Positions 2,950 through 29,622 of a stretch of 64,000 nucleotides of DNA are shown one piece after another (the stretch's first letter is position 1; each line of letters starts with the position of its first letter). The notes beneath the pieces were generated by a model that did not search any database, was not told where the DNA came from, and saw only the letters and a list, made by a program, of their open reading frames with translations. This DNA comes from Candidatus Dadabacteria bacterium. Its GTDB lineage: Bacteria; Desulfobacterota_D; UBA1144; Nemesobacterales; Nemesobacteraceae. Where the stretch lies: positions 155,641 to 219,640 of the forward strand of contig JAJDTG010000010.1 of assembly GCA_022827275.1 (NCBI GenBank), in the 5' to 3' direction. The position numbers and the translations under genes are program-made.

Positions 2950-3552
2950 ATGAAGAGAGAAAGAAAGAGTTTTCTGCGTATTGCTATAACCGTTTTGTTT
3001 ATAGTAGCCGGTTTTTACCTTTACGCAGAAAGCGCCGAAAGTAGCGACAAGGGCCCCGCGCAGCCCGTTCTTTTCAGCCACAAGATACATGCGGGGGACA
3101 ACCAGATAGAATGTCAGACCTGCCACAGCTACACGGAAGTTTCTCCCCATCCCGGTATTCCCTCGGTGCAAAAGTGCATGGGATGTCATGCCTACGTTGC
3201 CGGAAGGGACGTTGAGTACACAACTCAGGGAGGCCAGACGATCAACATAAGAGAAGAGATAAACAAGGTAAAGGGTTACTGGCAAAGACAGGAACCGATA
3301 CCTTGGGTAAAGGTTACCGGAATGTACGGCACGAACTCCTCGGGAATGCCGGAGTTTGTTCATTTCAACCATAAAAGGCACATAAAGCGTGGGTTTGAGT
3401 GCAGTACCTGCCACGGAGAAGTCGAGAAAATGGACGTTGTGCACAAGGCAAAAGACCTGACGATGGGGTTCTGCATATCGTGTCATGAGGAAAACGCCGA
3501 CAACGAGGAGCATAAAACAGAACTGAAGGATTGTCTGACCTGCCATTACTAG
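2950..3552 (+). CDS. actA: Alternative Complex III subunit ActA, a pentaheme cytochrome c
   Basis: 200 aa. An N-terminal signal/TM anchor is followed by five CxxCH motifs (CQTCH, CMGCH, CSTCH, CISCH, CLTCH). It sits directly upstream of actB. Confidence 0.85.
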   Translation: MKRERKSFLRIAITVLFIVAGFYLYAESAESSDKGPAQPVLFSHKIHAGDNQIECQTCHSYTEVSPHPGIPSVQKCMGCHAYVAGRDVEYTTQGGQTINIREEINKVKGYWQRQEPIPWVKVTGMYGTNSSGMPEFVHFNHKRHIKRGFECSTCHGEVEKMDVVHKAKDLTMGFCISCHEENADNEEHKTELKDCLTCHY

Positions 3553-3566
3553 GCCGGAGGGGATAT

Positions 3567-6506
3567 ATGTCTGGGAAGGAAAACAAAGAAAAAAACGGCA
3601 TGAAGAGAAGGGATTTCCTGAAAGTGCTCGGGGTAGCCGGCGGTACGGCAGCTGTTGCCGGAAGCTGTTCGGAGCCCGTGGAGCAGATAATCCCTTACGT
3701 CATTCCTCCTGAAAACGTTATTCCCGGAGTACCCAAGTTCTACGCGACGACCTGCAGGGAGTGCTCGTCGGGCTGCGGTCTCGTGGTGAAAAACCGCGAG
3801 GGACGCGCGATCAAGGTTGAAGGCAACCCCGAGAACCCTATAAACAAGGGAAAGACGTGCGCCATGGGCCAGGCTTCCCTACAGGGTCTTTATAATCCCG
3901 ACAGGGTCCGTTCCCCGCTCAGATACAACACTGAAACGCAGAGACTTGAGCCCATAGGCTGGGACCGGGGCGAAGAAATACTCGCGGAAAAGTTAAATTC
4001 CCTCGGTTCGGGTAAGATCGTCTATCTGAGCAACAACGTTTCGGGAACTTACTCGAAATTGGTGGCGAAATTCCTGAGACCTCTGGGAGGAAAGCACTAT
4101 GTTTACGAGACTTTCTCCCACGAACCCATAAGAAAGGCGAATTCAATTGTTTTCGGAAGAGACGAGATTCCTTCCTACAGGATAGACAAGGCAGATTACC
4201 TTCTCTCGTTTGGGGCTGACTATCTTGAAACGTGGCTTTCTGCGGTTTCAAACTCCATAGGATATTCAAAACTAAGAGATGTAGATCACGGGAAAACCGG
4301 CCAGATCGTTCATATAGAGCCGCGCTCCGGAATGACTGCTTCAAACGCAGATACGTGGGTTGCGGCGAAACCGGGCACGGAGCAGTATATTGCTCTCGGG
4401 ATCGCCAACGTTATGATCTCGAAGGGTCTTAACAAGGTTGCCCCGGGGCCGATAGCCAGAATGGTTTCGGGCTACACGCCCGAAAAAGTTGCGGCGCTCA
4501 CCGACGTGTCCGCCGACACCATAAAGAAAATCGCCCGGGACTTCTCGACCTCAAAAAGCTTGGCTATAGGGGGCGGAGCAGCCAACACGGGCTCGAATGC
4601 CACCGAGACCATGGTTGCCGTAAACATACTGAACTACCTAGCCGGGAACATTGGCAAGACGGTTGATTTCTCAGACTCTCTTTCAATCTCGGATGCAAGC
4701 AGCTTCAGCGACATGAAGGAGCTGGTGGAGGAAATGAGGTCGGGCAAGGTGGAAATTCTCATCGTTCATAACGTAAACCCGGTTTTCACGCTTCCCGGGG
4801 AACTGAAAGTTGCCGAGGCTCTTGAAAAAGTGCCTTTTGTCTTAAGCCTCTCTTCATTCCTTGATGAGACTTCCGAGAAGGCGCATCTCGTACTTCCCGA
4901 AAGCACTTCTTTTGAGAGCTGGGGGGACTACAGCCCGAAAAAGAGCGTGACCGGCATCACTCAGCCCGTCATGAGGCCGGTTTTCAATACCAAGTCCGCG
5001 GGCGATACGCTGATCTCCGTTTCAAAGAGTGTAGAGGCGCTCAAGAACACGTTTGCAGAGAAAAAATACTACGACTATCTAAGGAGCGCATGGAAGAAGA
5101 GGGCAGCGGTTCTCTCTCCCGGAACAAGCTTCGAGAAATTCTGGGAAGCACTTCTTGTAAAAGGTTCAGTAACAACCACTCCGGCGCCCGTCAATGTAGC
5201 TCTTTCATCCAGAGTAAGTTCCGTTTCTTTCAGCGACCCGCAGTTCCGCGGAGAAGGGGATTTCCACCTGATCGCTTACCCGTCCCACAGATTTCTTGAC
5301 GGAAGGGGAGCGAACAAGCCGTGGCTTCAGGAACTTCCCGATGCTCTTACCACTTCGGTGTGGGATTCATGGCTTGAGATAAACCCTGCGGTCGCGGCGA
5401 AAATGGGTCTTGAAGACGGTTCTTACGTGAAAGTCGATACCCCGGGGGGGAGTTTCGAAGTGCAGGTTTTCGTCTATGAGGGAATAAGGCCGGATACGAT
5501 TGCCATTCCACTCGGACAGGGACACACTTCCTACGGAAGATACGCGAAGGGAAGAGGGGTGAATCCCTTTGCCCTGCTGCCGGCGGCTACCGACGCGCTC
5601 TCAGGGGGCCCCTCGCTCCTTTCAACCAAGGCGAACGTTTCATCGCTCAGAAAAAGAGATCTGCTCGTAAGGACACAGTACACAAAGAGCCAGGGAGACA
5701 GGCACGTCGCCAAGACCGTCGCCCTTGACCAGATTGGTCATCATAACGGCGCCCATGGAGCGGACCACTCGGAGCACCCCGACTTCTACCCGGAAAAGGA
5801 ATACTCCAAATACAGATGGGGAATGGCCATAGACCTCAACAAGTGCACCGGGTGCGGGGCCTGCGTGGCGGCCTGTTCCGCGGAGAACAACATTCCCTTT
5901 GTAGGAAAGAAACAGATCGCCAAGCGCCGCGAGATGAACTGGATCCGCATAGAGAGATTTTTTGAGAAAAACAGCGACGGAAGCCTTGACGTAAGATTCC
6001 TGCCCATGCTCTGCCAGCAGTGCGGAAACGCCCCCTGCGAACCCGTATGTCCTGTTTTCGCGACTTACCACAATCAAGAGGGGCTAAACGGCATGATATA
6101 CAACCGCTGCGTGGGCACAAGGTACTGTGCGAACAACTGCACTTACAAGGTAAGAAGGTTCAACTGGTATACCTACAAGTTCCCCGAGCCGCTTAACTGG
6201 CAGCTCAATCCCGATGTGACCGTAAGGTCCAAGGGTGTAATGGAAAAATGCACCTTCTGCGTTCAGAGGATAAATCACGGCAAGGACCTCGCCAAGGATA
6301 AAGGAAGGCTTCTTCACGACAGAGAGGTTCTAACGGCCTGCGAGCAGGCTTGCCCAAGCGACGCAATAGTGTTCGGCAACCTGCTTGACGACAAAAGCAA
6401 GGCGTCGGTGCTCTCTGAGGACGATAGGGGCTACAAGGTTTTGGAAGTGGTAAACACCAAGCCCGCGATTACCTATCTTAAGAAAGTCAAACAGGAAAGA
6501 GTGTAA
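3567..6506 (+). CDS. actB: Alternative Complex III subunit ActB (molybdopterin-oxidoreductase-like domain fused to a 4Fe-4S ferredoxin-like domain, Tat-exported)
   Basis: The RRDFLKVLGVAGGTAAVAGS twin-arginine signal is present. A long MopB-like N-terminal domain is followed by C-terminal Cys clusters (CTGCGACVAAC...CQQCGNAPCEPVCP...). I place the start at ATG 3567 with GGAGGGG upstream. The ORF track starts at 3531. Confidence 0.85.
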   Translation: MSGKENKEKNGMKRRDFLKVLGVAGGTAAVAGSCSEPVEQIIPYVIPPENVIPGVPKFYATTCRECSSGCGLVVKNREGRAIKVEGNPENPINKGKTCAMGQASLQGLYNPDRVRSPLRYNTETQRLEPIGWDRGEEILAEKLNSLGSGKIVYLSNNVSGTYSKLVAKFLRPLGGKHYVYETFSHEPIRKANSIVFGRDEIPSYRIDKADYLLSFGADYLETWLSAVSNSIGYSKLRDVDHGKTGQIVHIEPRSGMTASNADTWVAAKPGTEQYIALGIANVMISKGLNKVAPGPIARMVSGYTPEKVAALTDVSADTIKKIARDFSTSKSLAIGGGAANTGSNATETMVAVNILNYLAGNIGKTVDFSDSLSISDASSFSDMKELVEEMRSGKVEILIVHNVNPVFTLPGELKVAEALEKVPFVLSLSSFLDETSEKAHLVLPESTSFESWGDYSPKKSVTGITQPVMRPVFNTKSAGDTLISVSKSVEALKNTFAEKKYYDYLRSAWKKRAAVLSPGTSFEKFWEALLVKGSVTTTPAPVNVALSSRVSSVSFSDPQFRGEGDFHLIAYPSHRFLDGRGANKPWLQELPDALTTSVWDSWLEINPAVAAKMGLEDGSYVKVDTPGGSFEVQVFVYEGIRPDTIAIPLGQGHTSYGRYAKGRGVNPFALLPAATDALSGGPSLLSTKANVSSLRKRDLLVRTQYTKSQGDRHVAKTVALDQIGHHNGAHGADHSEHPDFYPEKEYSKYRWGMAIDLNKCTGCGACVAACSAENNIPFVGKKQIAKRREMNWIRIERFFEKNSDGSLDVRFLPMLCQQCGNAPCEPVCPVFATYHNQEGLNGMIYNRCVGTRYCANNCTYKVRRFNWYTYKFPEPLNWQLNPDVTVRSKGVMEKCTFCVQRINHGKDLAKDKGRLLHDREVLTACEQACPSDAIVFGNLLDDKSKASVLSEDDRGYKVLEVVNTKPAITYLKKVKQERV

Positions 6507-7837
6507 TGAGCCAGACGCAGCAGACACCTTTAACTTACGCGAGAATAACTGAAGATGTAGTCAGGATGGTCGACAAGCCGTCCAAGAAGTGGTGGGCTCT
6601 TTTCCTTCCCACGGTGGCGCTCGTGGGTCTCGGCGTCATGTGCTTTTTCTACCAGGTAGCGGAGGGACTTGGAGTCGCCGGCTACCGTCACCCGGTTTTC
6701 TGGGGAGTCTACATAACCGATTTCGTTTTCTGGGTTGGAATAGCGCACTCCGGGACACTTATCTCGGCCATACTTTATCTGTTCCGCGCCAGATTCAGGA
6801 TGTCAATATACAGAATCGCCGAGGCAATGACAGTCTTTGCGGTTCTCACGGCGGGACTTTTCCCGATAATCCACCTCGGAAGACCGTGGAACTTCCTGTG
6901 GCTCATACCATATCCCAACTCAAGGGAGCTGTGGATAAACTTCAAGTCGCCGCTTGTCTGGGACGTGTTCGCGGTAAGTACTTACCTTACGGTAAGCTCG
7001 CTGTTTTTCGTGATCGGAATGATTCCCGATATAGCGGCAATAAGGGACAAGGTGAAAGAAGCTCCGAGAAAGATCATATACTCCATTCTTTCCTTCGGAT
7101 GGAAGGGGTCAAACAGGGAATGGCTCCATTATACAAGGGCCTATCTTTATTTTGCTGCCCTCGCCACGCCTCTTGTTCTCTCGGTTCACAGCGTTGTGTC
7201 CTGGGACTTCGCGATGGGTAACGTTCCCGGATGGCACACCACAATATTCCCGCCGTACTTCGTTGCGGGAGCTATTTTCTCGGGACTCGCGATGGTTATC
7301 ACTCTTACCATACCGATAAGAAAGATCTTCCATCTCGAGGACTACATCACCCTCGATAACTACGACGGCATGGCGAAACTCATAATTCTCACTTCCTGCA
7401 TAGTCGGCTACGCGTACGCTGCGGAATTCTTCATGGCGTGGTACAGCGGAAGTCCTTATGAGTGGGGACAGTTCGTTTACAGGGCAACTGGAGAGTATGC
7501 GCTTTTCTACTGGACGATGGTTATATGTAACTGCGTCGTTCCGATATCGCTGTGGTGGGAGAAGGTGAGAAAAAACATAAAGGCCCTTTTCGTCATTTCC
7601 ATACTGATAAACATAGGAATGTGGTTTGAACGCTTCAATATTATCGTCATATCCCTTTCCAGGGATTTTGAACCGGGTGCGTGGGGCATATACAAGATAT
7701 CGTTTGTCGAGGCCGGCATAACTATCGGAAGTTTCGCGTGGTTCTTCATGTTCTTCCTGCTGTTCGTGAAAACTCTTCCAGCAGTTTCAATAGCGGAGAT
7801 GAAGGAAATACTTCCGGTGCCGAAGAAAGGAGGTTAG
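6506..7837 (+). CDS. actC: Alternative Complex III subunit ActC (NrfD/PsrC-like polytopic membrane subunit)
   Basis: 443 aa, multi-TM and NrfD-like. Its start overlaps the actB stop (TAATG). Confidence 0.85.
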   Translation: MSQTQQTPLTYARITEDVVRMVDKPSKKWWALFLPTVALVGLGVMCFFYQVAEGLGVAGYRHPVFWGVYITDFVFWVGIAHSGTLISAILYLFRARFRMSIYRIAEAMTVFAVLTAGLFPIIHLGRPWNFLWLIPYPNSRELWINFKSPLVWDVFAVSTYLTVSSLFFVIGMIPDIAAIRDKVKEAPRKIIYSILSFGWKGSNREWLHYTRAYLYFAALATPLVLSVHSVVSWDFAMGNVPGWHTTIFPPYFVAGAIFSGLAMVITLTIPIRKIFHLEDYITLDNYDGMAKLIILTSCIVGYAYAAEFFMAWYSGSPYEWGQFVYRATGEYALFYWTMVICNCVVPISLWWEKVRKNIKALFVISILINIGMWFERFNIIVISLSRDFEPGAWGIYKISFVEAGITIGSFAWFFMFFLLFVKTLPAVSIAEMKEILPVPKKGG

Positions 7838-7843
7838 AAGGAA

Positions 7844-8350
7844 ATGAGCCAGGGCGTAGTCGGAATTTACTCATACCAGGATTCGGTTCTTTCGGCCGTA
7901 GAAAAACTCAAGGAGGCGGGTTATGGAGACATGAGGGTGTTCTCCCCGTTTCCCGACCACGAGATTGAGCATGCGGTTGATGCGCCTGAGAGTCCGGTGC
8001 GTTTTTTCACGCTCTTCGGAGGGTTGCTGGGAGCGACCTGCGGAATCGGTTTTACGGTTCTCACTTCAAGTGCCTGGCCGATAGCGGTGAGCGCCAAGCC
8101 CATAGTTTCGATAATTCCCTACATGGTCATCGTTTTTGAGCTTACGGTGCTTTTCGGAGCGCTTTCAACCTTTCTGGGGCTGATAATAAATTCCCTTATA
8201 AGGGAGAGAACCCCTGTGAGGCTTTATGACGAGCGTTTCTCAGATGACAAGTTCGGTGTCGCGGTTGTATGCGAGAAGGAGAAAATAGGTGCGGTCGAAG
8301 CGATATTAAATTCTACGGGAGCTGAAGAAATCAAGTTTGATGAAGCATAG
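7844..8350 (+). CDS. actD: Alternative Complex III subunit ActD (DUF3341-like)
   Basis: 168 aa. MSQGVVGIYSYQDSVLSAVEKLKEAGY is typical of ActD. AAAGGAGG precedes the start. Confidence 0.8.
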   Translation: MSQGVVGIYSYQDSVLSAVEKLKEAGYGDMRVFSPFPDHEIEHAVDAPESPVRFFTLFGGLLGATCGIGFTVLTSSAWPIAVSAKPIVSIIPYMVIVFELTVLFGALSTFLGLIINSLIRERTPVRLYDERFSDDKFGVAVVCEKEKIGAVEAILNSTGAEEIKFDEA

Positions 8351-8384
8351 AAACTTTTCTCGGACAGTTCTGGGTGGAGCTTTG

Positions 8385-8921
8385 GTGCCCAATTTATCTT
8401 TGAGGCTGAAAGTTTGCGTAGCGGTTATTTTTGCGGTCGCGCTTTCGCTCTCTTCCGCCCATTCGCTTCCCTGGTCTTGGGACATGTGGTCTCAGGATTC
8501 GATCAAGCCCTATGAGGAACCCGTGATTTTTCCGCGCAACTCGATTTCCACCGACGGCGAAAAAACCAAGCTTGAAGACAGGAACAAGGTCGAGCAGATA
8601 AAAAAAGGACCGATTCCCATAAGCGATGAGTCAGTAGCCAGGGGAGAGAAGGTTTTTAAAGAGCAATGCGTTGTGTGTCACGGTCCCGGGGGATTGGGAG
8701 ACGGAATCATAATAAAGAAAGGACTCGGTTTTTACCCGGTTAACCTTACCACGCCGGCCGTAGCGCAGAGAACCGACGGTTACATCTACGCCTATATACG
8801 CTACGGGGGCAAGGTTATGATGCCTTCTTACAGCGAGAACATATCGGAGCAGGACGCATGGCACGTGGTTAATTACGTGAGAAAGCTTCAAAACCCGGGT
8901 TCTGCCAAGGAGAATCAATAG
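8385..8921 (+). CDS. actE: Alternative Complex III subunit ActE, a monoheme cytochrome c
   Basis: It has a single CVVCH motif with a downstream Met ligand region. A signal peptide (RLKVCVAVIFAVALSLSSAHS) is present. I chose the GTG at 8385, which has GGTGGAG five nt upstream. Alternative in-frame starts at ATG 8340 or TTG 8337 are possible. Confidence 0.7.
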   Translation: MPNLSLRLKVCVAVIFAVALSLSSAHSLPWSWDMWSQDSIKPYEEPVIFPRNSISTDGEKTKLEDRNKVEQIKKGPIPISDESVARGEKVFKEQCVVCHGPGGLGDGIIIKKGLGFYPVNLTTPAVAQRTDGYIYAYIRYGGKVMMPSYSENISEQDAWHVVNYVRKLQNPGSAKENQ

Positions 8922-8925
8922 AAAA

Positions 8926-10104
8926 ATGGATCAGTCCATAAACCAGGAAATACTAGCGAAGAGAAACCAGATACCTAACTGGGTATTCATGGTTTTTGTT
9001 GCCCTTGCGGTTGTGGGCGCGGGGGCTTTCGTTATTAACGCTAGGGGAGAGAACGCTGAAGAGGTCTGGCAGCTTTTCCTGGTGAATTTTCTTTTCTGGA
9101 CGGGAGTCGCGCAGGGCGGGCTTGTGTTCTCCTGCATACTCAGGATAACCAACGCCAGGTGGGGAAGGGGGCTTCTTCGCATAAGCGAGGGTTTCGCGAG
9201 TTTTACGGTGGTCTCCTTAGTGCTCCTGCTGGTTCTTTTCATCGGAAAGGAATTTGTTCTTCCCTACGCGCATCACCACTACCACAGCCCCAAGGACATA
9301 TGGCTTAACGTAAATTTCGTGATGGCGAGAAACGTGATAGGTTTTGCGGGACTTTTAGTGCTCAATTATTTCTACCTGAAAACATCCATACGTCAGGATC
9401 TCGACGGCAGGGAAAACATCGTGAAGTTAAAGAAACTTGCCCCGGCCGTGATCGGGGTTTACGCCATTGTTTTCTCCCTCTTCGCCTGGGATTTTATGAT
9501 GTCGCTTGATCCTCACTGGTTCAGCACTCTTTTCGGTCCCTACTATTTCATGGGAAGCCTGATAGCCGCCATAGGGGCGACGATAATACTTTCGGTTCCC
9601 CTCAAGCGTTATCTGGGACTTGACGACTACCTGTCTGTTCATCATTACTGGGATATGGGAAAAATACTTCAGGGTTTTTCTCTTTTCTGGGTTTACCTGA
9701 TGTTCTCCCAGCTTCTTACGATCTGGTACGCGAACATGCCTGAGGAGACTGGGTTTGTTATAAAAAGGGTTGTGGACGAGCCTTTCCGCTCGTTTGCCTG
9801 GGCGATACTCACATGCTGCTTCATATTTCCTTTTGTCTCCCTGCTGCCCCGCTCACACAAGATAGTTACCCCGATAGCCGTTTTTATCGCCACGGTTTCT
9901 TTCTCGGGGCTCTGGATGGATAAATTCCTGCTGGTTATCCCTTCGCTTACAAACGAGCTGGTTTTCAGTATCAATCACTTCCTGATCACTCTCGGTTTTC
10001 TCGCTGGGTTCGTTGCAACATTTCTTCTGTTCATAAACAGGTTCCCGGTAATACCTTTCGGCGATCCTTACTTTGACGGCAAGTCAAAAGGAGGAGGGCA
10101 TTAA
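8926..10104 (+). CDS. actF: Alternative Complex III subunit ActF (NrfD-like membrane subunit, paralog of ActC)
   Basis: 392 aa and polytopic. AAGGAG precedes the start. It sits in the actF position after actE. Confidence 0.8.
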   Translation: MDQSINQEILAKRNQIPNWVFMVFVALAVVGAGAFVINARGENAEEVWQLFLVNFLFWTGVAQGGLVFSCILRITNARWGRGLLRISEGFASFTVVSLVLLLVLFIGKEFVLPYAHHHYHSPKDIWLNVNFVMARNVIGFAGLLVLNYFYLKTSIRQDLDGRENIVKLKKLAPAVIGVYAIVFSLFAWDFMMSLDPHWFSTLFGPYYFMGSLIAAIGATIILSVPLKRYLGLDDYLSVHHYWDMGKILQGFSLFWVYLMFSQLLTIWYANMPEETGFVIKRVVDEPFRSFAWAILTCCFIFPFVSLLPRSHKIVTPIAVFIATVSFSGLWMDKFLLVIPSLTNELVFSINHFLITLGFLAGFVATFLLFINRFPVIPFGDPYFDGKSKGGGH

Positions 10105-10255: not shown

Positions 10256-10386
10256 TTCTTCCCTATCTTCCATTGTGAATTGACTAAGCGTCACGGAACA
10301 TGTCTTAAGACGCTTTGCTCGAAACCGGATATAATTTCCGAGCGGTTTTTTCCGTTTTTCATAAAAAATCTTCTAAGGAGTTTTTC

Positions 10387-10737
10387 ATGTCCAAAGATGC
10401 CGAAATCAAGCTGAAGGTAGTGCTGGGGGACGACAATATTCCCGAGGATCTCTTCTGGGAGGCTTCCCAGTCCGAGGAACCGGGAGAGAAGCGTTGCGAG
10501 GCGGCTTTTATCTCCATGTGGGATGCCGAGAAGAAAGAATCTCTGGTAATAGATCTTTGGACCAAGAAAATGGAAGTGGGAGAGATGAACTATCATTTTT
10601 ACTATACGATGATGAAAATGGCCGACACCTACGAAAGGGCTACCTCCGAGAGGCAGATATCGAACAGAATGAGGGAATTCGCGGGTGAGTTCGCCGAGAT
10701 GGTCCTTGAGTCTTTCGGAGGCCAGAAAAGCTCCTGA
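10387..10737 (+). CDS. GldC-like protein
   Basis: 116 aa counted from the ATG with AAGGAG upstream. EIKLKVVLGDDNIPEDLFWEASQ...FISMWDAEKKESLVIDLWTKKMEVGEMNYHF...MADTYERAT resembles what I recall of Flavobacterium GldC (a ...LWTKDM... segment). Confidence 0.5.
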   Translation: MSKDAEIKLKVVLGDDNIPEDLFWEASQSEEPGEKRCEAAFISMWDAEKKESLVIDLWTKKMEVGEMNYHFYYTMMKMADTYERATSERQISNRMREFAGEFAEMVLESFGGQKSS

Positions 10738-10755: not shown

Positions 10756-10805
10756 CGCAAGATTAAGGAAACGCCAGGTTCCCCGGACATTTCCTTAATC
10801 TTGCG
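10756..10805. terminator. Perfect 16-bp stem hairpin between convergent genes; candidate bidirectional terminator
   Basis: CGCAAGATTAAGGAAA (10756-10771) pairs with TTTCCTTAATCTTGCG (10790-10805) around an 18-nt loop. It lies between the + gene ending at 10737 and the - gene ending at 10818. Confidence 0.5.
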
Positions 10806-10817: not shown

Positions 10818-11213
10818 TCAGTAAAAAACTCTCACGGCGATAAAAGCGAAGAAAAACCCCACGCACCATAGAAGCACGGATAACAGATATATCCAGTTAC
10901 TTGTCTTTCGTAATCTGGCACACGCCATTGCCTGCGCCGGGTCGATCGGACAGGGTGCGTTTCTAGCCCTCCAGAGCGCGAATCCGGCGATTAGAAGCAT
11001 CGCTCCTGAGATTCCGAACGTCCAGGCTTTGTATTCTGACAACGCGATAAGCCAGGGTGCGGTTCCTACGATTCCCGCCAGGACCGCGCCGGCGCCGACC
11101 GTCACCAATAATGCGGGAAGGGCGCAGCACACCAGCGTTCCAGCGGACGTAAGCAGGCTGAGCGAGGGGAGAAGCGTTTGCTTCACTCCATAGCCGGAAT
11201 TTGTGTTATCCAT
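10818..11213 (-). CDS. MerT-like heavy-metal (mercuric ion) transport membrane protein
   Basis: 131 aa with 3 TM segments. There is a CC pair in TM1 (LVCCALPALL) and a Cys pair in the cytoplasmic loop (APCPIDPAQAMAC). This matches MerT topology. Confidence 0.65.
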   Translation of the reverse strand: MDNTNSGYGVKQTLLPSLSLLTSAGTLVCCALPALLVTVGAGAVLAGIVGTAPWLIALSEYKAWTFGISGAMLLIAGFALWRARNAPCPIDPAQAMACARLRKTSNWIYLLSVLLWCVGFFFAFIAVRVFY

Positions 11214-11595
11214 GCTCGCACCCCCTGTGGATGGCGCTCACGTTGTACCCAGAGTCCGCGATAAGCTTCGTAATCGTTGCATCGTCAATGGTCAATCCGG
11301 GTTTCATAGCGACCACTATGGAACCTTTGCCAAGATCAACCTTGATTCCCCCAACATCGCCGCGTTTTAGGAAGACTTTTTCCAGGGAACGGGCGCAGAA
11401 ATCGCATACAAGCCCGCTGACCTTGATATTGATAGTGTCTTCACAAGCGGCATTTCCCGTGTCGTTTGAAGCGGCAGAGGGCTCAGCCACCTGACCTTCA
11501 TGGTTATGGTTATGTTCGTGTTCTCCATGTTGCGCAAGGCTTGGGAACACAAAGAAAAACGTCATAAAAAGAATCGCTGTGATTGATATTTTCAT
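11206..11595 (-). CDS. MerP-like periplasmic heavy-metal-binding (HMA domain) protein with a His-rich N-terminus
   Basis: A signal peptide is followed by a HGEHEHNHNHEG stretch and an HMA fold. The metal-binding loop reads GLVCDFCA, a CxxC in the position of the MerP GMTCxxC. Confidence 0.6.
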   Translation of the reverse strand: MKISITAILFMTFFFVFPSLAQHGEHEHNHNHEGQVAEPSAASNDTGNAACEDTINIKVSGLVCDFCARSLEKVFLKRGDVGGIKVDLGKGSIVVAMKPGLTIDDATITKLIADSGYNVSAIHRGCEHG

Positions 11596-11605
11596 AGTTT
11601 TCTCC

Positions 11606-12253
11606 TTAAAATCTTATTATTAAATTGAATAAAATCCCACCTTTGTCGCTGATTCCGACCTCAGCGAGATACTCGTTCTTAAAAAACCGGACAAAGGGCG
11701 TAAACGAGATGTTATCTCTCTCTCCCGTGATGTGGTCAACTTGCAGCATCAGCCAAGTGTGGATATCGCCGTAATCCCCGATATAAGGGGCGATTCCCAC
11801 CCGCGCTTTCTGCCTGAAGAACTTCGCTATGTCTTCGGCGTAGTAGACGCGGTTCTCATAACTCGTAAAGTACCGCCGGGTTTCCCAGTCAAGGGCGATA
11901 TCGGCAAAGGCGGCGGGCTGGGCTTCGCCGTCAGGCACTCCGAGATCACCATAGGCTATGCCAAGACCGCCTTTAAGATAAAAGTTTGCCTGTGAGGTCG
12001 CCGCATTATGGCGTTTCACCAGATAGTTAAGCTGTGCGCCGTGGAACTGCCACTCCTCCCCGCGCCAGTATTCGGTTCTGTATCCTATTGAATACTTGGC
12101 CGTCGGCGAATAATGAACGTGAAGAGAATGCGCGTTCTTGTCGTTTTTCTGCATGACCGTCCAGCCGCCCGGATATGAAACCGGACGGGACAGTGACTGA
12201 GGGGCGTATCCCATCAGGATCACGCAGCATAAAGTGAAAACTGTTAATTTCAT
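11606..12253 (-). CDS. Putative outer-membrane beta-barrel protein of unknown function
   Basis: A signal peptide is present. The sequence shows an alternating amphipathic pattern rich in Y/W/G and ends in a C-terminal Phe (…LIIRF). Confidence 0.4.
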   Translation of the reverse strand: MKLTVFTLCCVILMGYAPQSLSRPVSYPGGWTVMQKNDKNAHSLHVHYSPTAKYSIGYRTEYWRGEEWQFHGAQLNYLVKRHNAATSQANFYLKGGLGIAYGDLGVPDGEAQPAAFADIALDWETRRYFTSYENRVYYAEDIAKFFRQKARVGIAPYIGDYGDIHTWLMLQVDHITGERDNISFTPFVRFFKNEYLAEVGISDKGGILFNLIIRF

Positions 12254-12331
12254 GTTTCCTCCTGAGTATCGATTATGGCTTGGCGACGCCGAGGCGAAGC
12301 CGTTTATAGCGCGCGGACGCGCGCGATTTGC

Positions 12332-12682
12332 TCAGGAGAGGTGTTTTGGAGGTCGGAAATGGGTTTCGATCTGGCGGGAAGACAGAAGCTGATCGGCAAG
12401 AATTCCGACAGCAGATCCCCCGTGATGATCTTTTAATTCTTCAAGCGGCAATGCGTTTATCTGGACACAATGCTGGCAGTCGCAGCCATCGCATTGTTCG
12501 GAGCTTCGATCTTCCGAATCTTTTGTTTCATGGCAAGGCATGTCCATCTCGGCGTCCATCTGCATCTCGGCGGAAGCCTTCTCCATGTTCATTGGACATG
12601 TGGAGAGAGCGTTCGCCACACCGCCGGTAAGAAACAATACGATGCATGTTGCCAGTAGTACTGTTGTCTTCATGGTGTCCAC
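12332..12682 (-). CDS. Putative secreted Cys/Met-rich metal-binding protein
   Basis: A signal peptide is followed by CPMNMEKASAEMQMDAEMDMPCHE...CDGCDCQHC. I prefer this over the Arg-rich overlapping + strand ORF 12328..12630. Confidence 0.4.
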   Translation of the reverse strand: MDTMKTTVLLATCIVLFLTGGVANALSTCPMNMEKASAEMQMDAEMDMPCHETKDSEDRSSEQCDGCDCQHCVQINALPLEELKDHHGGSAVGILADQLLSSRQIETHFRPPKHLS

Positions 12683-12794
12683 ATCCTGATTATAGGCTAT
12701 TCACTTTTAGTTCAAACTTCAACGGCAGAGGTTCGAAAGAAGCAGATTATGCGGGAGTGGTTGCAAACTAATGAAGAGCTGCAGCAATACGTTT

Positions 12795-19105: not shown

Positions 19106-19182
19106 TGGTCGGGGTGACCGGATTCGAACCGGTGACCCCCGGCTCCCGAAGCCGGTGCGCTACCAAGCTGCGCTACACCCCG
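19106..19182 (-). tRNA. tRNA-Pro (anticodon CGG)
   Basis: The minus-strand sequence is CGGGGTGTAGCGCAGCTTGGTAGCGCACCGGCTTCGGGAGCCGGGGGTCACCGGTTCGAATCCGGTCACCCCGACCA. It folds as a 7-bp acceptor stem, D arm, anticodon loop TTCGGGA and a TTCGAAT T-loop, with an encoded CCA. Confidence 0.85.
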
Positions 19183-19304
19183 AACAAAAAGTTCCGGCTA
19201 GATTTTAACCCATCAGGGATTTCTCGCAACAGCCAATCCCGGCAGACGGGGAAAGCTGTATAGGCAACTGAATTTGGCTTGGAAACTGACTTGCGGGTTT
19301 GATT

Positions 19305-19380
19305 TGGTCGGGGTGACCGGACTTGAACCGGTGACCCCCGGTCCCCCAGACCGGTGCGCTACCAACTGCGCCACACCCCG
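19305..19380 (-). tRNA. tRNA-Pro (anticodon GGG)
   Basis: The minus-strand sequence is CGGGGTGTGGCGCAGTTGGTAGCGCACCGGTCTGGGGGACCGGGGGTCACCGGTTCAAGTCCGGTCACCCCGACCA. The anticodon loop is CTGGGGG. Confidence 0.85.
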
Positions 19381-19429: not shown

Positions 19430-19780
19430 TCAGAGATCCTGTCTCAGGGATTTTAACTCATCTAGAATTTCGCGCAACAGCATTTTGTCTGAATAGAGGG
19501 GGGAGATATTTCCGCTTCCGCTTTTCTCATCCCTGAGTCTTTTCTGAACTCCCGCTATGGTGAACTTCTGATCGTGGAGCAGGTGCTTTATCTTGTGGAA
19601 GAGATAAATCGTGTCCTTGTCGTAAAGTCTCTGGGACTTCCTCCTGATAGGCCTTACCTCTTTGAACTCGGTTTCCCAGTATCTGAGAACATAAGGCTTT
19701 ACTCCTATGATCTCACTTACTTCTCCTATCTTGAAATAAAGCTTGTCCGGCAGAGACAGATCTGAAAGCATTCCAGACAT
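19430..19780 (-). CDS. MerR-family HTH transcriptional regulator
   Basis: YFKIGEVSEIIGVKPYVLRYWETEF is the MerR-type HTH signature. The protein is short (about 116 aa) with a C-terminal coiled coil. Confidence 0.65.
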   Translation of the reverse strand: MSGMLSDLSLPDKLYFKIGEVSEIIGVKPYVLRYWETEFKEVRPIRRKSQRLYDKDTIYLFHKIKHLLHDQKFTIAGVQKRLRDEKSGSGNISPLYSDKMLLREILDELKSLRQDL

Positions 19781-23889: not shown

Positions 23890-24159
23890 GTTCGATACCT
23901 TCTCTCTTCCTATGCAGAGATTAGGTTGTAGAAACTAGTCCTGCCAAGATAAGGCAAAACCGTTCCTGTAATAATTCATTTTTCTATCTGTTTAAGAAGC
24001 AAACTCAAGCTCTAGCTCCCTTTAAAAAGAGTTTGGATTCTGAAGGTCTCGAATCGAAAATCATATCAACCTCATTTCCATATAAATCTATACCATTAAT
24101 ACGGCGGGAACACACTTAAAGAAAACGAAAAACTGTCTTAATGTAGTGGTACACTTCTT

Positions 24160-27100
24160 TCAGGATTTTGCAACATCAATTACACAGACTGATATCTTGC
24201 GTTGCTCGTCGGTCGTGAGGCTGTTAATTAATCGTTCTTTAAGCTCCATGGCACTTTGCGGACGTGTTCCCGATCCTGGGGGCCGACATGACTCTTTGCC
24301 AAACCAGAATACTAAATAGATGCCATAGCCATCTGTCTCTGGGTCACGGGTATATTTCGCAATCAGTTGGCTTTTTATTGCACTCCATAAATCTTGATTA
24401 TTGCTTCTTTTTATCTCGATTGGAATATTACACATAGCCTTGTATGCGATACGAATATCTGACCTCTTGTCATCTGCATAACGGCCTTCCGGTTGTGGAT
24501 CAATTCCTAATGGGTTGAGTTTTATTCTTAGGTCCGAAAGCAATATATCTCGACAGAAGTTTTCAATGCGGGGTTTTGCGGGCTTGTTTTCTGTATCCAT
24601 ATCCCAATATTGACGCCAGTCAGATGTGTTGCCATCACGGATGTTCTTAGCAAGGTCAGTCAAAATATCTATTGTCAGTGCTGACAGGTCCGCCGCATTT
24701 GCGGGGTTCTTGTTGTCTAGAGTTTCAAGTACCTGGTTGACGCTGAAATGGCTGAAACTGGCTTCGCGACGAGCTGACTTCTGTGTGCGAAGAGCCTCCG
24801 TGAGGTATTGTTTCCATGAGAGTAACTCGTCATCTGATGAGAGTCTTTCAAGTGCTTCAGTAGCGCTTGGCGATTGAATCGATGTCAGTTGCTGAATTAA
24901 TCTATGAACAAGATTTGCCGCTTCGGTCGATGGACTGACCCAACCGCTTTCCTCTGGGTCTGATAGCTTTGGTTTGTCAGAAGCTTCAATCAGTCTATAT
25001 TTGAACAGAAGTCCAAGCGCATCCTCGGGTGACAGCCAAGTGAAGGGTGATGAATGTCCGATTGTCCGAATCAGAAATTCCAGTGCCGGGACATCTAGGC
25101 GTTTGATCAGTTTATCCGGGAATTCTTTGATGCATTCCAGTAGATTTTTAACTCTAAGCTCTCGACCGGTTAGACATGTCTCTAATTTTTCAATAAAACT
25201 TGAAGGCGAAACGATAAGTCCGGCTGTAAGCCAGTAGACACGTTGGGCTATATCCATGCTAGAATAGGAGAGCTTTCTTTTGACTAATTTTAGGAAGGGT
25301 TCTTCATCGCAGTGAAGAAGTGCCGCTCTGAGCAGATAATTCAATCCCGACAGTTGCTGCTTAACGCATCGTACAGAAAATTTCTTCAGAAGTTGTAAAG
25401 TGGCAAGGTTCGCCGCTTTTGCGTAATCATCTCGGAACGCCAGTCTGTACAGATTTGAGAGAGTCTCTTTGCTTTTACGCATTCTAGATAGAGCACATGA
25501 GGTTAAAACATCTGAAACTATATCTGGATTGGACACAAGCAATTTCTGGTACCAAAGAGGATGGGAATTTAAGAAACTTGTCGGCAGTGGTGCGTTGTAA
25601 TAAAAAGCAATGGCTTGGCGCAACTGCTTTTCTTTAATGGGTATTTCTTCAAACTCAGGGTTGTTTCTGAATATCTCTTCCATGCCGGCTAAAAAGGGGA
25701 GTGCTAGATAATGTGCTTCATTGTTCTCTCTTAGCTGTATGATTTCAGCTTCATCCGGTATGTCGGAGCGAATAAGCGATTCCTGAAAAGCCTTGAGAAC
25801 TGTTTCTACTAGGTATTCATTGCCACCGAGAAAGTCGTGCAAGTGGTCTGCGGGGTTACCACTTGGAAAGTTTGCGTTTTCCCCGAAAAACACTCTGGCT
25901 AAGTTGTGGAGCAAACGCGGCGAGCATCGGTTTTCACTTAGTACTTCTTTGTGTGATTTCAGATAGTTGATCCGTTTAAGTAGTTCCTGTTGCTCTCTTG
26001 CTTTTTGTTCCTCGGTAAAATTTTCTTGCTGCCTTGATATATTACGGTAATTAGATTGCGATGCTAAGAGTAGCTGTTTAAGGTCGGGTTTGTCAGCAAG
26101 GGCTTCCTCAATAACTTCTTCAGAAAGCCCCTTATTGAAAATGTTGTTTTCTATAGTGTGAGCCGCCGTGTGCAGGAAAAATTTTTTGAAATTTTCGTCA
26201 GTTGAAGCTATTGCGTGCTTAAGGCACCAAAGTCCGAAGTCTTGTGGAGGAATACATTCGAGACCACGGTCTCTGAAAAGTCTCCGGTCGATTTCATGAG
26301 GTTTTACATCGTCGCATTTCATCCATTCTTCAAACACCGCCTTCTGCATTTCTGGATGATCGTTCAACCATGAACGAATTTCCATCTTGTGGCTACCCCA
26401 GTCCACAATCTGACAGTCCGATACGATCCAGAGCCAGATTGAGAAACGGTCCAGAGGAACTTGGTCCTCCGCCATAGCAAGGAATCTAGCTAACCAGGCT
26501 GGAAACACCGTGGAAAAGAAGCTGAATTGCTTTTTTTCGGTTTCGTATTCAGCGAAAAAACTGTCAGAACGTCCGTAAAGCCCGTCAAGCAACTCAGCAA
26601 GTTGAGTGGTTGTTGTTTGTTGTAATATATCTCTAAGCCAGAAGAACCTGTAACTTCCGCTAAGATTCGGGGCTTTTGGTTCTCTGAAATATTTCCAGAT
26701 ATCCGAAGAAGAAAGAATGTCTGGATAAAGCTCTTTAAGGAGAATTCCCAGCAGCTGATCATCTGGGTCTGATATCGACTCCGCATTCACGTCCTCTAAC
26801 AGATTTGTCATTTGAGTTAGGGAATGGTTGCCATTTTTTCCTTGTTGGATAAACGCACGGAGGGCGTTATCTCTGACATTCGGTGGCCAACTGTCATCTC
26901 TAACAATTTCCAGCAGAGCATCTCCAAGTTCAGGTATGGATGATCCGTGTTGAAGAGTTTCTAGCAGTAACCTGACAAGTGATTGTTGCGTATGGTTTCT
27001 TTCCGGATCAGTTAGAACGTTTTGAAAAAATTCCCGCACATCCGGCGTAGCCAGATATTCCAAGTGAGAATCATGTCCGATTAGCTGTGTATACCATGGA

Positions 27101-28317
27101 TTTTTCTTCGTTTCATCGGCTATATGGTTCAAAATTTGGTGCTTCTCATCAATGGAGAATCCCCAAACGTCACCATAGAGAATTGTTCCAAGTGGGTCAC
27201 GCTCGATAATCTCTCTTCTGCTTTGCGGACTGTGTGCCGCAAGCCAGGCAGAAAGACCGCGCAACTCAGACACAATTCCACCATCATATCCCGTCATCAA
27301 GGCGAGTACTCGTCTGACAGGAAGTCCCTCTTGTATTAGTTTTGCAAGATATTGTCCGCCTAGAAATTCGGCAACTTGTCTGTGGATTGGACTTACATGG
27401 GTTTCAGTGGGAGATTCAAAGGGAGATTCAAATAGCTTGGTGCTAAGCACATGGTGAAAAACTTCTTGGTCTTCGGTGTGTATTCTTTTCAGATGTATGT
27501 ATTCATGGCTTGTCTCGTTATGCGTGAGAGTGTATCCGGCATGACCGGTAAGAAGTTGTATTGCGCAAAGCCTTCCGGCTTCATTAAGCAAGCTGCGAAT
27601 ATCGCTAGAATAACGTTTAACTAATTCATGCCCTTGATTGTGTTCTTCAAGTAATTTACGGCAGGCGAGACCGAACGTTTCCATTCGGGTTTCCGGCCAA
27701 TTCCCGTCAGCAACTGCTGACGCCAGCATCTTGAGATTCTGGGGATTTACGAGCAAGATGCCGATTCCTTTTTCCTCAGCTGAAGCAACAAATAGTTCTG
27801 GATTATTAACGCCGTGGTTGCAACACAGAATTTTAAGGATGTCCTCGCGGGATAATGGGTCAAGGCGTAAAACCTTGAGCTTTCCGTCTGGTGACACATC
27901 TTTCAAATGATTTCTGTCGTTAGCTCCGAACCAGTCGGCTTCACGACAGGATAGACGGAAACGAGGACACCCTAAATCCTGAAGTTTTGCCCGAATTTGG
28001 TCAAAGGGTGTGCGCTGGTCGGACACTCCTGCACGCATTTCGTCGAGACCGTCAATAAACAATGTTGTTCCATGCCATTCAGGGCGATTTTCAAACGTGA
28101 TGAAGTTACGTGCAGTGACATAATGGCCTTCTTCTTGGGCTGCTTCTCTTTTAAATGCTTCCGTTTTTCCGGCACCTGGGGGACCGAGCAGCACGTAGCA
28201 ACTGTTGCCCCTGAATTCTTCCAACGGCATTGAAGAGGATCTATCGTCATGACTGCCGGTTTCAGGGATCTCGGTACATGTGCGGGGAGCAAAGTAATTC
28301 ATGATTTCTCGAACCAA
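24160..28317 (-). CDS. Large (1385 aa) STAND-type P-loop NTPase with NACHT-like motifs, a long alpha-helical repeat region and a C-terminal PD-(D/E)xK-like motif
   Basis: Walker A is LLGPPGAGKTE (about aa 40-50). A NACHT-like Walker B FIDGLDE follows, then RFRLSCRE, which is sensor-1-like (hhhhTSR). About 850 aa of helical repeats come next. The C-terminus reads ENFCRD…ADDKRSDIRIAYKAMCNIPIEIKRS (an E…D…ExK arrangement). Local GC is about 47%, against roughly 58-60% in the flanks. The start overlaps the upstream ATPase gene by 19 nt. Confidence 0.55.
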   Translation of the reverse strand: MVREIMNYFAPRTCTEIPETGSHDDRSSSMPLEEFRGNSCYVLLGPPGAGKTEAFKREAAQEEGHYVTARNFITFENRPEWHGTTLFIDGLDEMRAGVSDQRTPFDQIRAKLQDLGCPRFRLSCREADWFGANDRNHLKDVSPDGKLKVLRLDPLSREDILKILCCNHGVNNPELFVASAEEKGIGILLVNPQNLKMLASAVADGNWPETRMETFGLACRKLLEEHNQGHELVKRYSSDIRSLLNEAGRLCAIQLLTGHAGYTLTHNETSHEYIHLKRIHTEDQEVFHHVLSTKLFESPFESPTETHVSPIHRQVAEFLGGQYLAKLIQEGLPVRRVLALMTGYDGGIVSELRGLSAWLAAHSPQSRREIIERDPLGTILYGDVWGFSIDEKHQILNHIADETKKNPWYTQLIGHDSHLEYLATPDVREFFQNVLTDPERNHTQQSLVRLLLETLQHGSSIPELGDALLEIVRDDSWPPNVRDNALRAFIQQGKNGNHSLTQMTNLLEDVNAESISDPDDQLLGILLKELYPDILSSSDIWKYFREPKAPNLSGSYRFFWLRDILQQTTTTQLAELLDGLYGRSDSFFAEYETEKKQFSFFSTVFPAWLARFLAMAEDQVPLDRFSIWLWIVSDCQIVDWGSHKMEIRSWLNDHPEMQKAVFEEWMKCDDVKPHEIDRRLFRDRGLECIPPQDFGLWCLKHAIASTDENFKKFFLHTAAHTIENNIFNKGLSEEVIEEALADKPDLKQLLLASQSNYRNISRQQENFTEEQKAREQQELLKRINYLKSHKEVLSENRCSPRLLHNLARVFFGENANFPSGNPADHLHDFLGGNEYLVETVLKAFQESLIRSDIPDEAEIIQLRENNEAHYLALPFLAGMEEIFRNNPEFEEIPIKEKQLRQAIAFYYNAPLPTSFLNSHPLWYQKLLVSNPDIVSDVLTSCALSRMRKSKETLSNLYRLAFRDDYAKAANLATLQLLKKFSVRCVKQQLSGLNYLLRAALLHCDEEPFLKLVKRKLSYSSMDIAQRVYWLTAGLIVSPSSFIEKLETCLTGRELRVKNLLECIKEFPDKLIKRLDVPALEFLIRTIGHSSPFTWLSPEDALGLLFKYRLIEASDKPKLSDPEESGWVSPSTEAANLVHRLIQQLTSIQSPSATEALERLSSDDELLSWKQYLTEALRTQKSARREASFSHFSVNQVLETLDNKNPANAADLSALTIDILTDLAKNIRDGNTSDWRQYWDMDTENKPAKPRIENFCRDILLSDLRIKLNPLGIDPQPEGRYADDKRSDIRIAYKAMCNIPIEIKRSNNQDLWSAIKSQLIAKYTRDPETDGYGIYLVFWFGKESCRPPGSGTRPQSAMELKERLINSLTTDEQRKISVCVIDVAKS

Positions 28318-29573
28318 TCCTTTGCCGGCACCGACAAAAATTCTTCAATCGGGATTCCGCCTTCGCCGACCAGTTCGCAGCGCAGAGGGTTGAACCGTTT
28401 CTCAAACTCTTCCAGTCCACTCATGTTTACTTGCTTTAGACTGCTTTTGACTTCAAAAGCAACAATCTTGGAACCCCGTTCCAGAACGAAATCCACCTCG
28501 TAATTCTTATCCCTCCAGTAATAGAGATGGACATTATCCCGTATTCCTGTGTTGAACAGATGGGCGCCTACTGTGCTTTCGACAAGACGTCCCCAAAAAC
28601 TGCGGTCCGCTTTTGCCTCTTCAAAGGTGTATCCTGAAGAGGCTGACATAAGCGCGGTGTTAAGAACGTTAAGCTTAGGACTTGACGCCTTGCTGCGGGA
28701 AACGCCGCCCGCATACTTCTGAAGACCGGAAATAAGTCCTGCATTTGAGAGTAAGTCCAGATAGTGGGCCAAAGTTGTCGTGTTGCCGGCGTCTTTGAGC
28801 TGGCCGAGCATTTTATTGTATGAAAGTATCTGGCCTGAATACGCCGCGCCTAGTTCAAAAAGTCTTTTTAATAAAGCGGGTTTGTCCACGCGTCGCATCG
28901 CAAGGATATCGCGCTCGATGTTGGGTTCAACCAGAGCGCCGGTAATATACCGTTGCCAGTCTTCCTGCTTTTGAATTAACGGAGCTCCGCCTGGATAACC
29001 TCCAAAATAGATGTAGCTCTGCAGATCAAAATCAAACGCCGAGGACATCTCCGCAAATGACCAGTGAGCGAGATGTATAGGGAAAAAGCGTCCGGCCAGA
29101 CTTTCGCTTAACCCCGTCTGCATAATCAGGGGAGCGGAACCGAGCAAAACGACATGAAGGGGACAGTCATTCCATTTGTCCTCGTCCCACAAACCCTTAA
29201 CGGTTTCCGACCAGTTGGGGATTTTCTGGATTTCGTCAAACACAAGAATAAACCCGCGTTCCGAACGCCTAGCCTCTCTTCTGGCTTGTTCCCACCTGCG
29301 TACGAGCCACCTTGAATCCTTTTCCACGCTTATTGAGATGCTGGTTTCATCCGGTGTGGTAATTGAATCTTGTTCTGTATCTGGCAACGGATAGAAGGCG
29401 GTTGATTCGGGTTTGTCTACGGGCAGATATAGACTGCGCAGGTCGCATTGATACAGCGCTTGGCGAATAAGAGTGGTTTTGCCTGACTGACGGGGGCCGG
29501 TAATAATTGTAAGGAGTTTGGGTGCCTCGTTCAGGCGTTCGACGAGATCTGATATTATAGGTCGTTCGTACAT
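28299..29573 (-). CDS. AAA_14 / DUF4143-type ATP-binding protein (P-loop ATPase with a C-terminal restriction-endonuclease-like DUF4143 domain)
   Basis: 424 aa. The Walker A motif reads IITGPRQSGKTTLI, Walker B is ILVFDEIQKIP, and the C-terminus reads YEVDFVLERGSKIVAFEVKSS. This is the widespread AAA_14+DUF4143 architecture. The gene is low in GC. Confidence 0.6.
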   Translation of the reverse strand: MYERPIISDLVERLNEAPKLLTIITGPRQSGKTTLIRQALYQCDLRSLYLPVDKPESTAFYPLPDTEQDSITTPDETSISISVEKDSRWLVRRWEQARREARRSERGFILVFDEIQKIPNWSETVKGLWDEDKWNDCPLHVVLLGSAPLIMQTGLSESLAGRFFPIHLAHWSFAEMSSAFDFDLQSYIYFGGYPGGAPLIQKQEDWQRYITGALVEPNIERDILAMRRVDKPALLKRLFELGAAYSGQILSYNKMLGQLKDAGNTTTLAHYLDLLSNAGLISGLQKYAGGVSRSKASSPKLNVLNTALMSASSGYTFEEAKADRSFWGRLVESTVGAHLFNTGIRDNVHLYYWRDKNYEVDFVLERGSKIVAFEVKSSLKQVNMSGLEEFEKRFNPLRCELVGEGGIPIEEFLSVPAKDWFEKS

Positions 29574-29586
29574 TTCCGTGGATTGA

Positions 29587-29622
29587 ATTACTCTATTGAG
29601 AACTTTTACTCAATAGAGTAAT
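29587..29622. promoter_or_regulatory. Perfect 14-bp inverted repeat (ATTACTCTATTGAG-N8-CTCAATAGAGTAAT), 14-49 nt upstream of the ATPase gene start; candidate operator or 5'UTR structure
   Basis: Read directly from the sequence. The arms lie at 29587-29600 and 29609-29622. Confidence 0.4.

Follow-up and report, generated by a model that had tools for sequence, protein, structure and literature searches.

Within a 64,000-nucleotide window of a metagenome-assembled genome (MAG) of Candidatus Dadabacteria (Thermodesulfobacteriota; genome of about 2 Mb; contig JAJDTG010000010.1), we analyzed a cluster of four genes on the minus strand at positions 10818-12682. We designate these genes A (a Cys-rich secreted protein), B (an outer-membrane barrel), C (a periplasmic HMA protein) and D (a MerT-like membrane protein). 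Judged from the sequence and its relatives in other genomes, the cassette, in which A is an optional member, may well be a self-contained and horizontally spread relay that carries a soft metal across the cell envelope, most probably Cu(I); we put this reading at about an even chance.

The four open reading frames (ORFs) are co-directional and tightly packed, and the four-gene anatomy that the earlier note on this DNA had drawn was confirmed at the same coordinates. Gene A (12332..12673 from an ATG, or 12332-12682 if a GTG start is used) encodes a secreted protein of 113 amino acids (aa), gene B (11606..12253, 215 aa) an outer-membrane beta-barrel, gene C (11206..11595, 129 aa) a periplasmic HMA-domain metallochaperone, and gene D (10818..11213, 131 aa) an inner-membrane protein of three helices. 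The start of D overlaps the stop of C by 8 nt and a gap of 10 nt separates B from C, with good ribosome-binding sites at both of these tight junctions, whereas A and B are set apart by a spacer of 78 nt. For gene A, the ORF lister gave the GTG at 12682, and the ATG at 12673 yields the 113-aa product as it is called on sister contigs.

In a scan of one genome per species, we found a relative of D in at least 377 species. Conservation was then counted over the 80 best loci fetched from other genomes (labeled below by L-numbers), of which the 75 with at least 1150 nt upstream of D were taken as informative. B, C and D were colinear and in the same order in all 75 of these loci, so the arrangement is not due to chance, and this strict linkage suggests that the three proteins serve one pathway through both membranes. 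The carriers belong to at least six major lineages and include Dadabacteria, Alpha-, Beta- and Gammaproteobacteria, Rickettsiales-like MAGs, Micavibrio, Bdellovibrionales and Marinamargulisbacteria. By contrast with this internal order, the 103 nearest neighbors of the cassettes matched 111 Pfam families, none of which was present in more than three loci; because the neighbors are so heterogeneous, the cassette appears to be an autonomous, self-contained module, and a conserved additional gene (a reductase, an ATPase or a regulator) was rejected for the same reason. No P1B-ATPase motif was found in any fetched locus. Furthermore, the D and B proteins of the window are 60-70% identical to proteobacterial copies, and since this identity is seen between phyla, the sequences suggest that the cassette has probably been spread horizontally. 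Cultured carriers include Marinibactrum halimedae NBRC 110095 (L059) and Variovorax sp. SRS16/WDL1 (plasmid 2, L087). In RefSeq, the copies on the Variovorax plasmid are labeled as hypothetical proteins.

Gene D encodes a protein laid out like MerT. It has adjacent cysteines (C29, C30) in helix 1 and a second pair, C88-x9-C98, in the basic loop between transmembrane (TM) helices 2 and 3 (RARNAPCPIDPAQAMACARLRK), so that it shares with MerT both the three TM helices with Cys-Cys in TM1 and the Cys pair in the TM2-TM3 loop. The CC pair was present in 80/80 sequences of the family and the C-x9-C pair in 68/80. Helices were placed at residues 14-49, 53-84 and 92-130 in a low-confidence AlphaFold2 (AF2) model (pLDDT 62), which was too poor for a fold search, and the structural route to classifying D was dropped. 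Against the Pfam MerT model (PF02411), D scored 16.4 bits (E 0.0093), short of the gathering threshold of 32.9. Nevertheless, MerT was the sole recurrent Pfam match in the D family, found in 7/16 close and 21/46 distant members with a best E of 1.2e-5. In addition, when D was compared by hhalign with Tn501 MerT (a query checked to be 100% identical to an annotated merT), its loop Cys pair aligned with the loop Cys region of that protein. Homologs of D in a large protein collection numbered 1806 (clusters at 90% identity), none with a Pfam domain or a credible functional name, and the superfamily comprises 796 clusters at 50% identity. From these sequence comparisons we conclude that D represents a separate family, distantly related to MerT, and is not a member of the MerT family itself. 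D-like membrane domains also occur fused to a HisKA_3 histidine kinase (P0363, 294 aa) and to a periplasmic beta-helix, NosD-like domain (P0340, 434 aa), a hint that such a domain can act in metal sensing or metal delivery.

The product of gene C begins with a signal peptide and contains a His-rich stretch (HGEHEHNHNHEG) as well as an HMA domain whose metal loop reads GLVCDFCA. It scored 22.1 bits against the Pfam HMA model (PF00403; gathering threshold 24.8) while covering profile positions 2-61 of 62, and an HMA fold is very likely. The loop follows the pattern G[LM][VI]C[DAS][FH]C in 63/63 sequences, with the CxxC invariant in all 63 and the exact form GLVCDFCA in 47/63; a further Cys pair, C51 and C126, is carried by C and co-occurs in 19/63 homologs. 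The MerP model (TIGR02052) gave 13.1 bits (E 0.1), far below its equivalog cutoff of 92.55. The best NCBIfam matches were instead to CopZ models (best E 2.1e-6), at 24-28 bits against cutoffs of 62-112; in particular, C reached 27.8 bits on NF033795 (cutoff 91) and 24.5 bits on TIGR00003 (cutoff 62), missing both. CopZ differs from C in being cytoplasmic, leaderless and about 70 aa long, whereas C has a signal peptide and a His-rich spacer.

The resemblance to the MerT-MerP pair of Tn501 and Tn21 therefore has to be stated with care. As in those systems, a periplasmic CxxC HMA protein is paired with a small three-TM inner-membrane protein, and D is like MerT in its Cys-Cys of TM1 and its second Cys pair in the cytoplasmic TM2-TM3 loop. 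Unlike in the mer operon, which runs merT-merP, the HMA gene precedes D; the loop pair of D is C-x9-C and that of MerT is C-x5-C; the cassette adds an outer-membrane barrel and a CopL-like gene; the sensors associated with it in other genomes are of the Cu(I) type; and the window has neither MerA nor a metal-sensing MerR. Among ten other large ORFs of the window that we tested (422-760 aa, housekeeping genes), none encoded a mercuric reductase or a P-type ATPase, and the one MerR-family protein of the window (19430-19780) contains no cysteine and matches only the CarH, HspR and RacA models, weakly. Because there is no mercuric reductase among these ORFs and the MerR-family protein lacks Cys, the cluster is not a mer operon. 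The earlier note had already remarked that the cluster lacks merA and merR, and our searches found neither merA nor a metal-sensing merR in the neighborhood. Its MerT-like and MerP-like labels hold as a description of the layout, which does resemble Mer transport, but the search with profile hidden Markov models (HMMs) that it named as a check places both proteins outside the two curated families, at the sub-threshold scores given above. The MerR-family gene that it pointed to, about 7 kb away, was rejected as a regulator of the cassette or metal sensor on the strength of its missing Cys and weak CarH and HspR matches, and is irrelevant to it.

Gene B encodes a protein with a signal peptide and a C-terminal ...IIRF, for which the AF2 model was a confident 12-stranded barrel (mean pLDDT 86.6). 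For a barrel family, conservation is unusually high, with a mean column identity of 66%, an invariant mature N-terminus (RPVSYPGGW) and many invariant polar residues, including H45, H47, D122, E124, R126, R127 and H165. This high conservation, together with the invariant polar residues, would be consistent with a specific chemistry in the lumen and not with a generic pore. We found no match to B in Pfam, NCBIfam or the sequences of the Protein Data Bank (PDB), and none of its 1108 homologs in the large protein collection (clusters at 90% identity) had a Pfam domain or a credible functional name. The fold is the same 12-strand barrel as that of the outer-membrane copper protein PcoB/CopB (PDB 7pge, PF05275), but B lies outside the PF05275 profile by sequence, and no sequence link to CopB/PcoB or to any solved structure was found.

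Genes that accompany the cassette elsewhere bear on the identity of the metal. In three loci (L050, L070 and L085) a CueR-like regulator is divergent from B. These regulators have a C-terminal CPGxxxPxCPI motif, and on TIGR02044 they reached 136-139 bits, whereas the ZntR, MerR and CadR models gave 72-90. The gap of 38-48 nt between regulator and B (L050 4940-4979; L070 4870-4909; L085 2628-2677) contains a TTGACC-N19-TATATT promoter, with TATTGT in place of TATATT in L050; a 19-bp spacer is the hallmark of MerR-type promoters. In L070 and L050 this promoter ends about 6 nt before the annotated ATG of B, so a leaderless mRNA or a more downstream start of B is possible. Furthermore, CsoR/RicR-like repressors with the C-H-C fingerprint occur in six loci; in five of these the repressor gene comes immediately after D, and in the sixth it precedes B. 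In L084 a CusA/CzcA-type RND gene (1550 bits) and the start of B overlap, the gene order in L068 is copA (multicopper oxidase)-copB-B-C-D, and CopM-like, multicopper oxidase and CopI-like genes neighbor the cassette in L031 and L079. We therefore favor Cu(I) as the predicted cognate metal, with Zn/Cd and Hg as minority alternatives, because CueR- and CsoR-type sensors and cus and cop genes adjoin the cassette elsewhere, no Zur box was found, and a CueR-type promoter stands at B in two of the loci that also have Zrg-like genes. The best family matches of C, which are to CopZ models, and the Met/His/Cys motifs and weak CopL matches of A (see below) also point to copper. The suggestion of copper or another soft metal in the earlier note fits the CueR-, CsoR/RicR-, CusA-, CopA/CopB-, CopI- and CopM-like neighbors seen in these genomes.

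Behind its signal peptide, the product of gene A, the variable member, is rich in Cys, acidic residues, Met and His (CPMNMEKASAEMQMDAEMDMPCHE...CDGCDCQHC). In 51 loci B is preceded by an A-like gene, and a variant form is present in three others; conserved in the family are the signal peptide, an N-terminal Cys, PCH, CxxCxC and a C-terminal PPKxxS. The protein had been described in the earlier note as rich in both Cys and Met. The enrichment in Cys is general (5.8% versus 1.1% background), but that in Met is specific to the lineage (a mean of 3.5% versus 2.3% background in homologs from outside the Dadabacteria), and Met-richness was rejected as a general copper signature. We found no Pfam family and no source name for A. 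It scored 18.7 bits on the NCBIfam model CopL_fam (NF033807), below the subfamily cutoff of 40, and 19/35 of its homologs matched this model weakly (best E 6e-5), all of them below the 40-bit cutoff.

The 78-nt spacer that follows A contains two tandem GC-rich stem-loops (12282..12324, minus strand), one at 12309-12324 (GCGCGCG-TCC-GCGCGC) and one at 12282-12301 (GGCTTCGCC-TC-GGCGTCGCC). Both hairpins are kept in 14 Dadabacteria spacers, with double changes in two pairs, and across phyla the A-B spacers show more structure than co-directional control spacers (median z -1.74 versus -0.30; Mann-Whitney p = 2e-5). These hairpins are candidates for an intra-operon attenuator, processing site or stabilizer that may set the ratio of A to B-C-D. 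In addition, we found that A is missing from 10/10 loci with an adjacent CueR-, CsoR- or MerR-type regulator, as well as from the two in which the cassette is in line with a cus-type RND gene or copAB, whereas none of the 39 loci in which A is present has an adjacent regulator (Fisher p = 1e-6, from a table that is not phylogenetically independent). A precedent exists in Xanthomonas, where copL immediately precedes copAB and is reported to govern the induction of these genes by copper (PMC13115771, PMC10312155), and to do so without a two-component system (PMC13115771). The mutual exclusion of A and regulators, the structured spacer, the weak CopL matches and the Xanthomonas example support the view that A is a CopL-like leader or regulatory component, and a simple role as periplasmic chaperone is also possible. 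One Dadabacteria-like locus (L026, Thermodesulfobacteriota OZ242002.1, 3953-6387) retains the luciferase-like gene, B-C-D, the GldC-like gene and alternative complex III and has no A; since it keeps this synteny, A would be dispensable, or recently lost or gained.

In the mechanism that we propose, the metal would cross the outer membrane through B and be bound by C in the periplasm, possibly after being concentrated by the His-rich tail of C and by A. Thiol ligand exchange would hand it from C to the Cys-Cys that D carries within the membrane, and D would hand it on to its own cytoplasmic Cys pair, in a relay that, as in the transfer from MerP to MerT, would need neither ATP nor coupling to the proton-motive force. 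As with CopCD, such an inward, Mer-like flow would rid the periplasm of reactive Cu(I) by moving it into the cytoplasm, where it is buffered. A itself would act as a periplasmic Cys-rich metal binder, or as a cis-acting regulatory ORF by way of the structured A-B spacer, and could make expression responsive to metal where no dedicated regulator adjoins the cassette. By analogy with MerTP and CopCD we favor the inward direction, which we rank only slightly ahead of the outward one. The sequences and models show the localization signals, the barrel fold of B, a very likely HMA fold in C, the arrangement of cysteines in D, the strict linkage of the genes and their association with Cu(I) sensors; the passage of metal from B through C to D is inferred, and so is the import or sequestration role suggested in the earlier note. 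A bolder version, which we regard as rather doubtful, would see here a previously unrecognised class of copper homeostasis system in marine and other bacteria, an ATP-independent, all-thiol conduit across both membranes whose expression would be governed by a secreted CopL-like leader, acting through structured intergenic RNA, in place of a transcription factor.

Several observations weigh against a copper relay of this kind. None of the four cassette proteins passed the threshold of a curated model in Pfam or NCBIfam, the AF2 model of D is of low confidence, and the hhalign alignment of D with Tn501 MerT (86 colinear columns, E 0.0046) has a probability of only 7.6%. An outer-membrane pore that admits copper is counter-intuitive in a copper-induced system, and the Asp inside the CxxC loop of C would fit a divalent ion. 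In about seven loci the cassette has genes for zinc uptake as neighbors (ZnuA, Zur, ZnuCB, Zrg-like ABC). No regulator adjoins the cassette in the window itself, and in the 300 nt upstream of 55 non-redundant cassettes, searched by regular expressions and 8-mer enrichment, no convincing shared operator or Zur box was found. The mutual exclusion of A and adjacent regulators perhaps rests on about 4-6 independent lineages. Finally, our literature search found no paper that describes the cassette.

The same parts could in principle run in the opposite direction, with D passing Cu(I) from the cytoplasm or the membrane face to C, and B releasing it to the medium, where oxidation and dilution outside the cell would serve as the sink; this would make the cassette a compact, ATP-independent route for efflux or for draining the periplasm. 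In L084 a CusA/CzcA-type efflux gene is in line with the cassette, in L068 this holds for copAB, the cassette is under CueR- or CsoR-like control in other loci, regulators of these kinds switch on under copper excess, and B shares its 12-strand fold with PcoB. This regulatory context does not discriminate between directions, however, because resistance operons also hold importers such as merTP and copCD. Outward flow is a serious rival but unlikely in our judgement: the cassette contains no energy-coupling domain, free copper in the cytoplasm is far below periplasmic levels, and to our knowledge all characterized MerT-type proteins are metal importers. A second possibility retains the inward direction and changes the metal, so that B would admit zinc (or Cd/Co), the His-rich C would capture it and D would carry it inward under oceanic metal limitation. 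We found znuA, zur and znuCB adjoining D in L022 and L071, and Zrg-like ABC genes (an ATPase, an FtsX/MacB permease and DUF3299, the last being ZrgE) co-directional with the cassette and upstream of it in L033, L070 and L085, with a Zur-like gene at the head of the cluster in L070; the His-rich spacer of C and the Asp of its metal loop point the same way. ZrgABCDE has been described as a Zur-regulated zinc importer (PMC9817125). The znu genes are, however, convergent neighbors and not operon partners, nothing resembling a Zur box was found upstream of any cassette searched, and two of the three Zrg loci (L070 and L085) also carry a CueR-like regulator and a 19-bp-spacer promoter directly at B. 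The all-Cys sites of the relay and the CsoR/RicR neighbors likewise favor Cu(I), and we consider zinc acquisition quite improbable.

There are two further explanations. D might be a membrane thiol-redox or sensor module, an analog of ScsB/DsbD and not a transporter, that maintains the periplasmic Cys proteins A and C in reduced form or signals how much metal they carry, with B as an unrelated accessory barrel. The D-like domains fused with a histidine kinase or a NosD-like beta-helix agree with this, as does the need of A and C for reduced cysteines in an oxidizing compartment, but the cassette has no thioredoxin-fold partner, the sole homology signal of D is to a transporter, and the strict linkage of B, C and D in 75/75 loci suggests a single route through both membranes; we hold such a module to be decidedly improbable. 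A genuine Hg(II)-handling variant of MerTP, sequestering Hg or served by a merA elsewhere in the genome, is in our view very improbable indeed. The layout of D resembles MerT, and in L082 a three-Cys MerR/CadR-type regulator lies directly upstream of B, but the MerT, MerP and MerR models were all missed, no merA was found in the window ORFs tested or recognized in the flanks of the fetched loci, and the sensors adjacent to the cassette are mostly of the Cu(I) type. In L082 the MerR/CadR-type ORF reads in frame into B with no stop codon (4069-5124), and B may start internally at a non-ATG codon, the two genes may really be fused, or the read-through may have arisen in sequencing or assembly as an artefact.

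The cassette has parallels in several known systems. Gene A is like copL of the Xanthomonas and Stenotrophomonas copLAB loci in being a small Cys/His-rich ORF directly upstream of a metal-handling operon, but it is followed by B-C-D, whereas copL is followed by genes for a multicopper oxidase and CopB, and A differs further in its clear signal peptide and PPKxxS C-terminus. CopC and CopD of the cop and pco systems, which are encoded within copper-induced resistance loci, offer a functional analogy only, that of a periplasmic copper binder delivering to an inner-membrane protein; their folds and families are unrelated to those of the cassette. A further related module, which lends support to the Mer-like layout, is on Vibrio diabolicus plasmid pSLV18-213K (NZ_CP069194, L088), where an ORF of the D family (~5851-6246; TLLCCALP..., CPADP...C, GFFFSY) is followed by a separate secreted HMA ORF (GMTCAFC), with a GDCCVxC (seleno)protein and Tn3 alongside. 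This MerT/CopZ-like plus GDCCVxC module (the family name of NCBIfam NF045683) thus shares with the cassette a true D-family ORF and a secreted HMA gene, but in it D precedes the HMA gene, B and A are absent, and the association is with Tn3. The D profile did not match the HMA-domain protein in the annotated Vibrio frame, and the D-like ORF lies in another frame. RefSeq gives a single "heavy metal-associated domain-containing protein" coding sequence at 5892-6563, which appears to merge both ORFs (5851-6563).

In this reading, the cassette joins a known principle, the thiol relay of Mer type, to a barrel family that lacks annotation and to a leader that resembles CopL. B and D are large families for which neither Pfam nor NCBIfam has a model, yet they are strictly linked across phyla and stand repeatedly beside Cu(I) sensors. 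If the proposal is right, many marine Alpha- and Gammaproteobacteria, Rickettsiales-like lineages and Dadabacteria would handle copper by a compact Mer-style relay that annotation has missed, predictions of metal tolerance from metagenomes would change, and an outer-membrane component would be added to the MerT paradigm. Furthermore, the inverse relationship between A and a dedicated regulator offers a testable handle on the poorly understood CopL-type regulation.

We also examined the sequences that flank the cassette. A perfect TATAAT at 12689..12694 (minus strand), about 15 nt upstream of the ATG of A, was read from the sequence as a possible -10 box of the cassette promoter; its -35 is weak. 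A consensus promoter scan reported no minus-strand promoter with a 16-18 nt spacer upstream of A, and the box is for that reason listed as a candidate only. A weak terminator-like hairpin (10774..10786, minus strand) about 30 nt past the stop of D came from the consensus scan only and carries low weight, as the scan found 5 terminator-like sites in the region against 2.6 expected. The immediate neighbors of the cassette in the window are a luciferase-like monooxygenase, a GldC-like gene and an alternative complex III operon. The last of these is complete (2950-10104, plus strand), with a multihaem cytochrome, a molybdopterin/FeS subunit, NrfD, ActD, a cytochrome c and ActF; it is followed by the GldC-like gene (10315-10737, plus strand), which adjoins the cassette. 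This synteny of the cassette with alternative complex III and the GldC-like gene is kept in Dadabacteria only.

Further away, two tRNA-Pro genes (CGG and GGG, 19106-19380) lie beside the Cys-less MerR-family gene. The stretch 24000-29600 is low in GC (0.43-0.45 versus about 0.51 elsewhere) and may be an island; it holds a 1385-aa ORF (24160-28317, minus strand) and an AAA_14/DUF4143 ATPase (28299-29573). A small signal recognition particle (SRP) RNA was located at 46541-46638 and a HipA-like toxin gene at 46793-48061, and at 63346-64000 a 16S rRNA gene, represented by its 5' 661 nt, is truncated where the window ends.

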